A DNA stretch of 64,000 nt from Deltaproteobacteria bacterium RIFCSPHIGHO2_02_FULL_40_28 (GTDB taxonomy: Bacteria > UBA10199 > 2-12-FULL-40-28): NCBI GenBank assembly GCA_001798135.1, contig MGRJ01000024.1:152514-216513 (forward strand). The letters are read 5' to 3'. Both the position numbers and the translations under genes were made by a program. The notes below the pieces were generated by a model. That model had not been told where the DNA came from and searched no databases. It saw only the letters and a list, made by a program, of their open reading frames with translations. Positions within the stretch are counted from its first letter, which is position 1. Each line of letters starts with the position of its first letter. Shown piece by piece: positions 8,809 through 10,912 of this stretch.

Positions 8809-8964
8809 ATAAATCGGTTTCAGACATGCGCGTAAAACCTTAAGGGTTATTACGACGACAAAGAGAAGCGGAAAGCTCGTGATAGAAAACTTAAATTTTT
8901 GGTAGTGGGTCAGTTTGAAATCTGAAATCTTGCTTTTCAATCTTGATTTAGGCATATTTGTTTT

Positions 8965-9213
8965 ATGCCTAAGCGGTTAAGAATCCAACCGAAGAAAGAC
9001 TTAAACACGAGAGCCTTTGATATACTTCAACAAGTCACTGGTGAGAAACCAAAGGAAGACCCAACTAAGAACCCCGCTGCCGTGGCTCTTGGTAGATTAG
9101 GGGGGCTTAAGGGTGGTAAGGCTAGGGCTAAGAAGTTATCTGCGAATGAAAGACACCGTATTGCAATAAATGCAGCAAAAGTAAGATGGGGAAAAAATTT
9201 AAAAGATAGCTAA
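8965..9213 (+). CDS. small basic protein (82 aa), conserved KGGKARA...RW-type C-terminus, unknown function; passenger gene
   Basis: The ORF ends GRLGGLKGGKARAKKLSANERHRIAINAAKVRWGK. It lies inside the IR-bounded element. Confidence 0.45.
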   Translation: MPKRLRIQPKKDLNTRAFDILQQVTGEKPKEDPTKNPAAVALGRLGGLKGGKARAKKLSANERHRIAINAAKVRWGKNLKDS

Positions 9214-9669
9214 TTATTTTGTTTTGTTTGGAGAAGCTAAGGTTACTTGCGCTCTTATGCCATCGTAAATCATGATTATGTTACTAAGAAAGTCTCTTCC
9301 TAAAAGAACCTCATGTGCTTGATCACCATCTTTTAAATCAGCAGCAAGAAATTTGCCATATTGCTCTGTCTCTAGTGCGAGGCACACAATTCTTGTTAAA
9401 TACATCGTATGTTCTCTTGGTCCACCAACACCAGCTACCATTGCCTTATCAACTGGCACAAGACCTAATTTAGTCGCTAACTGGCTATCAATCATGCTTT
9501 GTGAAGCTCCAGTATCTATAAGGGCAAATACAGTTTCAGATTTTAATTCTTCTATTTTATCAGGAATGTCAAAAGAACATACAATCACCTGTGTAGTTGG
9601 ACCATAGTGGAGCAACCGCTGTGAATCAGCTTTACCTTCATTACTAAAACCTGCTTCAATTAGAGGCAT
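9214..9669 (-). CDS. retropepsin-like (clan AA) aspartic protease; passenger gene
   Basis: ALIDTGAS active-site motif (D-T/S-G-A) with hydrophobic flanks, at the ~150-aa size typical of bacterial clan AA single-domain proteases. Overlaps the upstream ORF by 14 nt. Confidence 0.65.
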   Translation of the reverse strand: MPLIEAGFSNEGKADSQRLLHYGPTTQVIVCSFDIPDKIEELKSETVFALIDTGASQSMIDSQLATKLGLVPVDKAMVAGVGGPREHTMYLTRIVCLALETEQYGKFLAADLKDGDQAHEVLLGRDFLSNIIMIYDGIRAQVTLASPNKTK

Positions 9670-9970
9670 GAACTATTCTATAGGCTACCGATGCTGGAAG
9701 ATTTTTAGATGGTTCGCTCCCTACTTCTCGAATTAGATAAGGACCTTTACCAAATTGTTTAATTGCTTCTTTAGCGGCTGCATCAAAAGTGTCATAAGCA
9801 CCGACAAGTTTTTCATCGTGTATAATGACAAATTTACCCATATGATGCTTCAAGAGAGTAGGCTTCATTTGCTCAAAAGCATGTATTTCTTTTTTTAATA
9901 AATCACTCATATGCATAGTATAAAACACACTGAGTACGTTTACAATATTAGAAATCATCTTACAAGCCAT
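9656..9970 (-). CDS. small protein co-transcribed with the aspartic protease (DUF-type, function unknown)
   Basis: 104-aa ORF overlapping the protease start by 14 nt. Motif GKFVIIHDEKLVGAYDTFDAAAKEAIKQFGKGPYLIREVG. Confidence 0.5.
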   Translation of the reverse strand: MACKMISNIVNVLSVFYTMHMSDLLKKEIHAFEQMKPTLLKHHMGKFVIIHDEKLVGAYDTFDAAAKEAIKQFGKGPYLIREVGSEPSKNLPASVAYRIVHASN

Positions 9971-10018
9971 GGTTTTATATGCTTGACTTTTCTTAACCGA
10001 TCAAGCATAAAAGTCATT

Positions 10019-10846
10019 ATGAATAAGTTAAACGTTAAAGATCAAGTTCGCATCGTAGCCTCTCTTGTGGAAGGGAACAGTATCCGTGCAACCTGCCGAA
10101 TGACAGGAGCTTCTAAGAATACAGTCGTTAAGCTTTTGGTTAATCTTGGCCGTGCCTGTTCTGAATACCAAGATAAAACCTTTAAAAACCTCAATTGTAA
10201 ACACATCCAATGTGATGAAATTTGGTCTTTTGTTGGAATGAAGGACAAGAATATCCCGAAAGAGAAGAAAGGCATTTTCGATTATGGCGATGTTTGGACC
10301 TGGACGGCTTTGTGTGCTGATACGAAGCTAATTCCATGCTGGTACGTTGGAGATCGTAGTGCGGAGGCTGGCTATCATTTCATGAACGATCTTGCGGGAC
10401 GTTTGGCCAATAAGGTCCAGCTCACAACTGATGGTCATAAGGCTTACCTAGAAGCGGTGGAAGGCGCTTTTGGGAATGATGTTGATTATGCCCAACTTCA
10501 AAAGATTTATGGAACAGTGAAAAAAGAAGGTGAAACTCGATACAGCCCTGCACAGTGCATGGGGGCACGAAAAGCAGTTATTACTGGCAATCCAGCTCAT
10601 GAGCATACTTCCACAAGCTACATTGAACGCTCTAACCTTACTATGCGAATGCACATGCGCCGTTTTACTCGCTTAACTAATGCCTTCTCAAAGAAGCTTG
10701 AGAATCACGAAGCAGCTATTGCCATTCATTTTATGTATTACAATTTTGCCCGTATTCACCAGACTTTGCGGGTGACACCTGCCATGGAGGCTGGTATAAG
10801 TGAACATGTGTGGGGGTTAGATGAGATAGTAAAATTATTGGATTGA
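10019..10846 (+). CDS. DDE transposase, IS1/IS1595 family-like
   Basis: N-terminal HTH (IRATCRMTGASKNTVVKLL). The core IQCDEIWSFVGMK...TDGHKAYLEAV resembles IS1 InsB (VCAEMDEQWGYVG...TDGWPLYE). Stop abuts the right IR. The ORF track starts at 9911, but the ATG at 10019 fits the HTH N-terminus. Confidence 0.65.
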   Translation: MNKLNVKDQVRIVASLVEGNSIRATCRMTGASKNTVVKLLVNLGRACSEYQDKTFKNLNCKHIQCDEIWSFVGMKDKNIPKEKKGIFDYGDVWTWTALCADTKLIPCWYVGDRSAEAGYHFMNDLAGRLANKVQLTTDGHKAYLEAVEGAFGNDVDYAQLQKIYGTVKKEGETRYSPAQCMGARKAVITGNPAHEHTSTSYIERSNLTMRMHMRRFTRLTNAFSKKLENHEAAIAIHFMYYNFARIHQTLRVTPAMEAGISEHVWGLDEIVKLLD

Positions 10847-10912
10847 AACTGACCCACTACCAACTGTAAGGCCCCATTGACTTTCCTGTTTTGGTAGAGA
10901 TATAGTTTTTAA

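Follow-up and report, generated by a model that had tools for sequence, protein, structure and literature searches.

Cytoplasmic retropepsin-like proteases of bacteria are barely characterized, RimB and APRc being the few cases that have been studied (PMC11957791); beyond these, the literature search made for the pair described here gave only one tangential mention, of a small retropepsin-domain protein close to type III CRISPR loci in Sulfolobales (PMC3973734). Here, we describe a pair of overlapping genes, encoding a retropepsin-like aspartic protease and a small DUF5678-like protein (hereafter the partner), in a stretch of 64,000 nucleotides from Deltaproteobacteria bacterium RIFCSPHIGHO2_02_FULL_40_28 (contig MGRJ01000024.1, positions 152,514 to 216,513; this whole stretch is referred to as the window), where the pair is carried by an insertion sequence (IS) of the IS1 family. 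The pair represents a real, widespread and uncharacterized two-gene module, the genomic behavior of which, as read from sequences, points to a protease toxin accompanied by a dedicated antidote. A literature search returned nothing on this protease–partner pair.

The protease gene occupies positions 9214..9669 on the minus strand of the window and encodes 151 residues, with DTGA at residues 52–55 (within ALIDTGAS, residues 49–56 in the list of open reading frames (ORFs) of the window) and LLGRDFL at residues 122–128. Directly upstream, the partner gene (9656..9910, minus strand) most likely encodes 84 residues, comprising a DUF5678-like α/β core with FGKGPYLIR and then a tail with LPASVAYR. 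The partner stop and the protease start overlap by exactly 14 nt (9656..9669, minus strand; ATGCCTCTAATTGA), as can be read directly from the sequence. An earlier sequence-only reading of this DNA had put forward these two overlapping ORFs, and both are real; its partner length of 104 residues does describe the longest ORF (9656..9970, minus strand), but is probably too long. The partner homologs comprise 80–89 residues, their alignment begins at residue 21 of the 104-residue ORF, and the NCBI record of the identical partner protein (OGQ07414.1) is annotated at 84 residues; these lengths and alignments therefore place the start most likely at the ATG at 9910, or at 9916.

Both ORFs are clearly not chance products, given their many homologs (55 for the protease and at least 162 for the partner in word-indexed searches) and given that well over 100 unrelated loci show the same arrangement of genes with the same overlap. 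A profile search with the partner retrieved 3026 cluster representatives at E ≤ 1e-3, 465 of them at E ≤ 1e-10. Identical copies of the locus are present in other Rifle samples, and NCBI labels both proteins ‘hypothetical protein’. The protease is read in the +1 frame relative to the partner, its start lying 11 nt ahead of the partner TGA. Because no Shine–Dalgarno-like sequence is visible upstream of the protease start, the two genes are probably translationally coupled by termination–reinitiation.

On the strength of profile scores and a predicted structure, we are confident that the 151-residue protein is a retropepsin-like protease of clan AA, as had been proposed from its D-T-G motif. Two Pfam models, PF13975 (gag-asp_proteas; 37.8 bits versus a cut-off of 28.2) and PF13650 (Asp_protease_2; 36.9 versus 24.3), score above their cut-offs. 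By contrast, membership in TIGR02281 (clan_AA_DTGA; 18.0 bits) and TIGR03698 (clan_AA_DTGF; 19.7 bits) is rejected on scores, which fall far under the cut-offs of 57.95 and 57.35, respectively; of the two profile hidden Markov models that the sequence-only reading had named, Asp_protease_2 is thus recovered and TIGR02281 is not. Across an alignment of 90 family sequences, D52, G54 and G124 are invariant, with T53, A55 and R125 being at least 90% conserved, and among 130 paired proteases DTGA is retained in 128 and G-R-(T/S/D/N) in 121. By these conserved motifs, the family is predicted to be catalytically competent.

The AlphaFold model of the protease, built on the family alignment, has a mean predicted local distance difference test score (pLDDT) of 94.5 and a predicted template modeling score (pTM) of 0.87, and includes a hairpin (E72–80/E83–96) with VAGVGG at the turn, G83 being invariant; this hairpin is a candidate for the glycine-rich flap of the active site. 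When the model was compared with the PDB using Foldseek, the listed matches were dominated by retropepsins, Ddi1 and pepsin-type enzymes (template modeling score (TM-score) at most 0.71 on the target); the top matches were Rickettsia APRc, the proteases of equine infectious anemia virus, feline immunodeficiency virus and Rous sarcoma virus, the RVP domains of Ddi1, and one pepsin-type lobe. The D-T-G context therefore aligns to the clan AA fold. APRc (PDB 5c9f) is the best structural match (E 1e-4) and Ddi1 the best match to the family profile (E 1e-5), which also matches the proteases of human T-lymphotropic virus 1 and human immunodeficiency virus 1 by sequence; identity between the window protease and retropepsin structures is just 11–24%.

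In common with APRc, Pseudomonas RimB, the RVP domain of eukaryotic Ddi1 and the retroviral proteases, the window protease is a single-lobed protein of the clan AA fold with one D-T-G-A loop in each chain and a G-R-D/T motif, and its size is likewise consistent with an obligate homodimer. In retropepsins, each chain supplies one catalytic Asp; by this analogy, the protease would act as a homodimer. Its family differs from the studied retropepsins in having a dedicated DUF5678-like partner and a conserved, family-specific N-terminal segment of about 45 residues (MPLxEAGF...GPT), and constitutes a new, well-defined family within clan AA. Whereas APRc is membrane-embedded, the window protease has no membrane anchor, and neither a signal peptide nor a transmembrane segment is evident from its sequence. 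RimB is encoded in the rimABK operon (PMC11957791), and the window protease gene is not.

The association between the two genes is strict. Scans of metagenomes and IMG/VR seeded with the protease yielded 86 informative loci, and in all 86 the partner lies directly upstream; the conservation of the pair that the sequence-only reading had asked about thus extends well beyond this genome. A second scan, seeded with the partner and covering one genome per GTDB species, gave 337 loci in 185,579 species genomes, with hits in Proteobacteria, Chloroflexota, Acidobacteriota, Latescibacterota, Spirochaetia, Verrucomicrobiota and other phyla; 80 of these loci (L013–L092) were read. The overlap in these partner-seeded loci measured 14 nt (25 loci), 8 nt (12 loci), 26 nt (4 loci) or 11 nt (1 locus), and the protease was always in the +1 frame. 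The ATGA overlap, which is common in bacteria, was never seen among the 80. Altogether, the adjacent co-directional arrangement occurs in more than 130 loci, the upstream gene encoding about 82 and the downstream gene 150 residues.

The distance matrices of partner and protease are correlated with r = 0.65, and clean in-frame partner–protease fusions occur in a Dehalococcoidia metagenome-assembled genome (MAG; L067, 5998–6669) and in a metagenomic protein (P0324). These fusions support a physical association of the two proteins. Three further candidate fusions (P0176, P0197 and P0380) were rejected as frameshift artefacts.

Linkage of this kind might also be found if the partner were an obligatory positive subunit (an assembly factor, a dimerization scaffold or a specificity adaptor) of a niche protease that is not toxic and that temperate phages or cells, for instance, might employ in the regulated proteolysis of a specific target. 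The protease is never seen without its partner, expression of the two is seemingly coupled and stoichiometric, fusions exist, and some copies are found in early or recombination regions of viral contigs, all of which would suit such a subunit. We nevertheless regard this as quite improbable: it leaves unexplained why the protease is selectively deleted or decayed while an intact, conserved partner remains, and why the pair has been inserted at sites that are unrelated to one another, for instance within a mutase operon, and the disordered, substrate-sized tail of the partner fits an inhibitor or substrate better than a scaffold.

Decay of the module is markedly asymmetric. Among the 86 informative protease-seeded loci there is no protease-only locus, even when members with merely 30–33% identity are included. 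In the 80 partner-seeded loci, by contrast, the protease beside the partner is apparently intact in 56, truncated or frameshifted in 12, absent in 11 and at a contig end in one, and in three further partner-seeded loci (L006, L011 and L012) a pseudogene protease adjoins an intact partner. The reverse polarity, with the partner as toxin and the protease as antidote, is rejected on these counts, since partner-only loci are common and protease-only loci absent. The asymmetry also fits the proposal of the sequence-only reading that the pair serves a selfish or conflict function rather than housekeeping.

Individual loci record how the protease is lost. Among related Latescibacterota species, the loci L055 and L066 lack about 424 bp that are present in L031 (6263–6686) and match the protease ORF there nearly end to end; the partner is kept, and partner and flanks are 92% identical. 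Some genomes carry several copies of the module; in one of these (L017/L019), a 1669-bp duplicate copy stops inside the protease. A Chloroflexota MAG harbors a tandem triplication (L027, 5050–6667), in which copies 1 and 2 have degenerate partner tails and a missing or truncated protease, and the only intact protease stands beside the copy with a canonical LPASV tail. Among the 11 orphan partners, the tail motif is degenerate in four. Judging from these alignments, the tail motif tends to vanish where the protease has long been absent.

The partner itself falls just short of a recognized family. DUF5678 (PF18929) scores 20.4–21.0 bits on the window protein, under its gathering cut-off of 23.2, and 50 of 108 partner homologs match the model at E ≤ 0.01 (best 3e-6); on these scores, the partner is a divergent branch of the DUF5678 family, for which, to our knowledge, no function has been established. 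Residues 19–60 of the 84-residue form align to the DUF5678 model, and the branch to which the window partner belongs has an additional N-terminal helix and the conserved LPASV tail. The predicted structure (pLDDT 75) comprises a helix (3–22), a hairpin (27–39), a second helix (42–53) and a strand (59–62), followed by a tail (residues 68–84; pLDDT <50) that is predicted to be disordered. No solved relative of the partner was found by sequence or by fold (best Foldseek E 0.9).

Despite its predicted disorder, the tail (peptide TLPASVAYRIVHA) carries the motif [LM]PAS[VIL]xYR, which is among the most conserved parts of the partner in homolog alignments. A segment that is conserved yet disordered usually folds onto a binding partner, and in many type II antitoxins a disordered part folds on the toxin. 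The tail presents 8–12 extended residues, the same length as a retropepsin substrate, and its fate tends to follow that of the protease, as seen in the degenerate copies of the tandem triplication, in double-partner proteins and in the four orphans. This link to the protease, together with the length match, favors inhibition by a pseudosubstrate or slow-substrate tail. As a side observation, the C-terminal His-Ala of the partner is probably constrained by the embedded protease ATG.

Tandem double-partner proteins of about 170–180 residues also exist (P0184, P0187, P0061, P0206, P0208, P0235 and others), and their last tail is not LPASV (it reads, for example, LPRYLVERQ, or ends in RRDADR). In one locus (L191, 3001–3519), a double-partner protein is encoded with no protease downstream, which suggests that the DUF5678-like core also has a protease-independent role. 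We considered whether the double-partner proteins indicate one tail per dimer cleft, and rejected this, as the L191 protein has no adjacent protease and these proteins form a separate subfamily.

An enzyme–substrate maturation pair would account for part of this picture. Here, neither protein would be toxic, and the protease would remove the tail of the partner and thereby activate or inactivate its DUF5678-like core; spoIIGA and pro-sigma-E provide a precedent for a protease encoded beside its substrate. The conserved, disordered tail of 8–12 residues has the size of a retropepsin substrate, the linkage is strict and the genes appear coupled, the in-frame fusions resemble polyprotein arrangements, and a core that persists without the protease and forms tandem proteins apparently has a function of its own. 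However, both types of remnant would be expected of a harmless pair, and what is seen is partner-only remnants in 23 of 80 loci against protease-only remnants in 0 of 86; orphan partners mostly retain an intact tail despite the absent protease; and the patchy, mobile, multi-context spread is typical of selfish modules, less so of a maturation pathway that serves the cell. Overall, we consider a maturation pair unlikely.

The reading that we favor, with a rough probability of 45%, is that the pair is an autonomous, horizontally mobile module resembling type II toxin–antitoxin (TA) systems, in which the protease is harmful and the partner neutralizes it. It is favored by the fixed order with the small gene first, the overlap, the patchy spread over many phyla and contexts, the multicopy genomes and the carriage by prophages and an IS, and above all by the observation that the protease is never alone, whereas the partner frequently stands by itself or next to a defunct protease. 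In the proposed mechanism, the cytoplasmic single-domain protease would homodimerize and so build one active-site cleft, and would act as a harmful effector, cleaving host or phage proteins. The upstream partner would be made first, with coupled translation delivering both products together, and would neutralize the protease by direct binding. Its disordered tail, [LM]PAS[VIL]xYR, would most likely lie in the cleft, as a pseudosubstrate or a slowly cleaved substrate, with docking or sensing falling to the DUF5678-like core. If the partner were lost or titrated away, the protease would be set free, and the payoff could be stabilization of the carrier (here an IS1-family transporter IS), abortive phage defense, or both.

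Several observations weigh against this interpretation. We know of no precedent for an aspartic protease as a TA toxin. No helix–turn–helix (HTH), ribbon–helix–helix, AbrB or Phd domain was detected in the partner with Pfam or by fold comparison, so that classical autoregulation is not supported; a DNA-binding, autoregulating antitoxin is common in TA systems, though not universal. The partner matches none of the PADLOC models, and the protease gives only a weak match (E 3.3e-6, 25 bits) to PDC-M08B, a candidate that is itself uncharacterized. Neither protein was matched in PLSDB plasmids or isolate phages, and with no copy on sequenced plasmids or isolate phages a role in plasmid addiction is not evidenced. 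Inter-protein covariation (mutual information with average product correction (MI-APC); 130 pairs, effective number of sequences (Neff) 113) was uninformative: the strongest pair (partner A82 and protease P2) arises artefactually from the nucleotides that the two genes share in the overlap, and the residual covariation is a clade signal from one F/W site. Finally, five of the decayed proteases are frameshift or nonsense cases in long-read MAGs and may be assembly errors, whereas the other seven truncations and the 11 absences are not explicable in this way.

The contexts in which the pair occurs are mutually unrelated. One copy lies at the end of a prophage, adjoining an integrase and a HicA gene; another lies between the genes for glycyl-tRNA synthetase and NAPRTase; others are close to restriction-modification and HepT genes; and in Paraburkholderia the pair stands at the edge of an AlpA-type island. 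In one locus (L187, 5778–6435), it separates the genes for the large and the B12-binding subunit in a methylmalonyl-CoA mutase-like operon, a place in which the insertion of a two-gene module is unusual. On viral contigs, the pair is found near an integrase or between PD-(D/E)XK and RecT genes. Cultured strains that carry the module are Magnetospirillum molischianum DSM 120 and Paraburkholderia sp. BR14263. On a viral contig (L175, 5372–6487, minus strand), the gene adjoining the pair encodes a protein with HTH, HATPase_c and DUF4325 (STAS-like) domains, an architecture that is frequent in defense-type loci.

In the window, the pair is enclosed, with a transposase gene and a further small gene, by perfect 18-nt terminal inverted repeats (left, 8899..8916, plus strand, TTGGTAGTGGGTCAGTTT, with a weaker similarity to 8943; right, 10846..10863, minus strand), of which only two copies exist in the window (0.07 expected by chance). 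The claim that the pair rides on a mobile element is therefore upheld: the repeats delimit the segment 8899–10863, containing orf82, protease, partner and transposase, and essentially the same terminal repeat, GGTAGTGGGTCAGTTTGAAAT, bounds a 3.4-kb element on a Mesorhizobium loti plasmid (L189, 295–3666) and a 4.2-kb element on a Hoeflea plasmid (L190, 55–4278). The transposase (10019..10846, plus strand; 275 residues, named ‘transposase’ by NCBI) is divergent from the partner, and its stop codon is overlapped by the right repeat. Pfam DDE_Tnp_IS1 scores 33 bits on it, above the cut-off of 24.1, and NCBIfam transpos_IS1 62.9 bits, under its cut-off of 100; the protein is 53–58% identical to plasmid genes annotated ‘IS1 family transposase’, with 58% identity to the transposase of the M. 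loti element and 55% to that of the Hoeflea element. No target-site duplication is present, the flanks cttaaattt and ctgtaaggc not being duplicated, and no empty site was found, all other samples carrying the identical filled locus.

Situated between the end of the IS and the transposase gene, the pair is oriented divergently from that gene and has a promoter region in common with it; such an arrangement would suit an accessory function for the IS itself, for example in processing or regulating the transposase. Yet this IS was not seen with the pair in any of the more than 170 other loci examined, the contexts of which are prophages, chromosomal sites and operons, and in related IS copies the slot is filled by entirely different cassettes. 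An IS-specific function is thus essentially refuted by the genomic contexts, and we consider it very improbable.

The small basic protein encoded by orf82 (8965..9213, plus strand) has homologs at the same position in related IS copies, following immediately after the left end in both plasmid elements. It is 42% identical to an M. loti protein annotated ‘histone H1’ (E 1e-7) and 41% identical to a 78-residue Hoeflea protein (E 1e-9), and has no Pfam match; its C-terminus (GGLKGGKARAKKLSANERHRIAINAAKVRWGK) is a basic motif common to the ‘histone H1’-annotated proteins of related IS copies. By these comparisons, orf82 is part of the IS and not of the protease cassette. The ends of orf82 and of the convergent protease ORF abut with zero intergenic bases.

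A secondary inverted repeat brackets the passenger segment in the window (left arm, 8961..8983; right arm, 9990..10012; both given on the plus strand; 20 of 23 nt matching) and has a counterpart in the Hoeflea element (L190, 119–139 and 2454–2474; 19 of 21 nt). The right arm lies between the partner and transposase starts, likely a divergent promoter region, and within a pre-transposase stretch that is conserved between IS copies (TATGCTTGAC...AAGCATAAAAGT). Possible roles of this repeat are those of an operator, of a promoter element or of a boundary of the cassette.

In the slot that holds the pair in the window, ahead of the transposase, the M. loti and Hoeflea elements carry an Xre-HTH/Peptidase_M78 fusion and an unknown protein. 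On this comparison of copies, the elements form an IS1-type family in which an accessory gene is conserved and the contents of the passenger slot are exchangeable. Xre/COG2856 (ImmA/IrrE, Peptidase_M78) cassettes are predicted TA-like or anti-repressor modules. Like the window pair, they are small, mobile cassettes containing a protease; they differ in that a zinc metallopeptidase is fused to an HTH domain and the partner is a different one, whereas the window protease belongs to the unrelated aspartic class.

If the reading of a protease toxin held by a pseudosubstrate partner is true, the module would add a new enzymatic class to the biology of TA systems and abortive infection, would give DUF5678-like proteins their first function, and would supply an aspartic protease together with its peptide inhibitor as a compact pair that can be genetically encoded. 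With about 470 partner clusters at E ≤ 1e-10, the family is small enough to be tractable, and its presence in cultured strains makes the hypothesis directly testable. Separately, an IS1-type family with an exchangeable slot for protease-containing cassettes is of interest for mobile-element biology.

Among defense candidates, the nearest likeness to the pair is that between the window protease and component B of PDC-M08, which is weak and confined to the profile level, the window partner matching no component. Probably, PDC-M08B is itself a small retropepsin-like protein that was flagged because it occurs near defense genes. Of the 90 protease family members, 42 match PDLC04405, and neither the partner nor its 108 homologs match any PDC-M08 model; membership in PDC-M08 is rejected on scores, and no mention of this candidate was found in a literature search. 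In retroviruses, the transframe peptide that flanks the protease restrains it; the partner tail, encoded upstream in the overlapping -1 frame, would be a bacterial analog of this arrangement. That the module constitutes an undescribed toxin–antidote or abortive-defense class, with a retropepsin-like toxin held by a DUF5678-like pseudosubstrate tail and traveling as cargo of prophages and IS1-type elements, is a tentative proposal that stays short of even odds.

The closest resemblance in organization is to type II TA systems such as RelBE, Phd-Doc and HicAB. As in these, two small co-directional genes overlap with the putative antidote gene upstream, the putative antidote has a conserved C-terminal tail that is predicted to be disordered, and the spread is patchy and mobile, with multicopy genomes, association with prophages and an IS, and orphan putative antidotes but never orphan candidate toxins. 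By contrast, the candidate toxin is here an aspartic protease, the partner is without a recognizable DNA-binding domain, and the pair has no match to a characterized TA or defense model. The pair is accordingly filed as TA-like, outside any named TA family.

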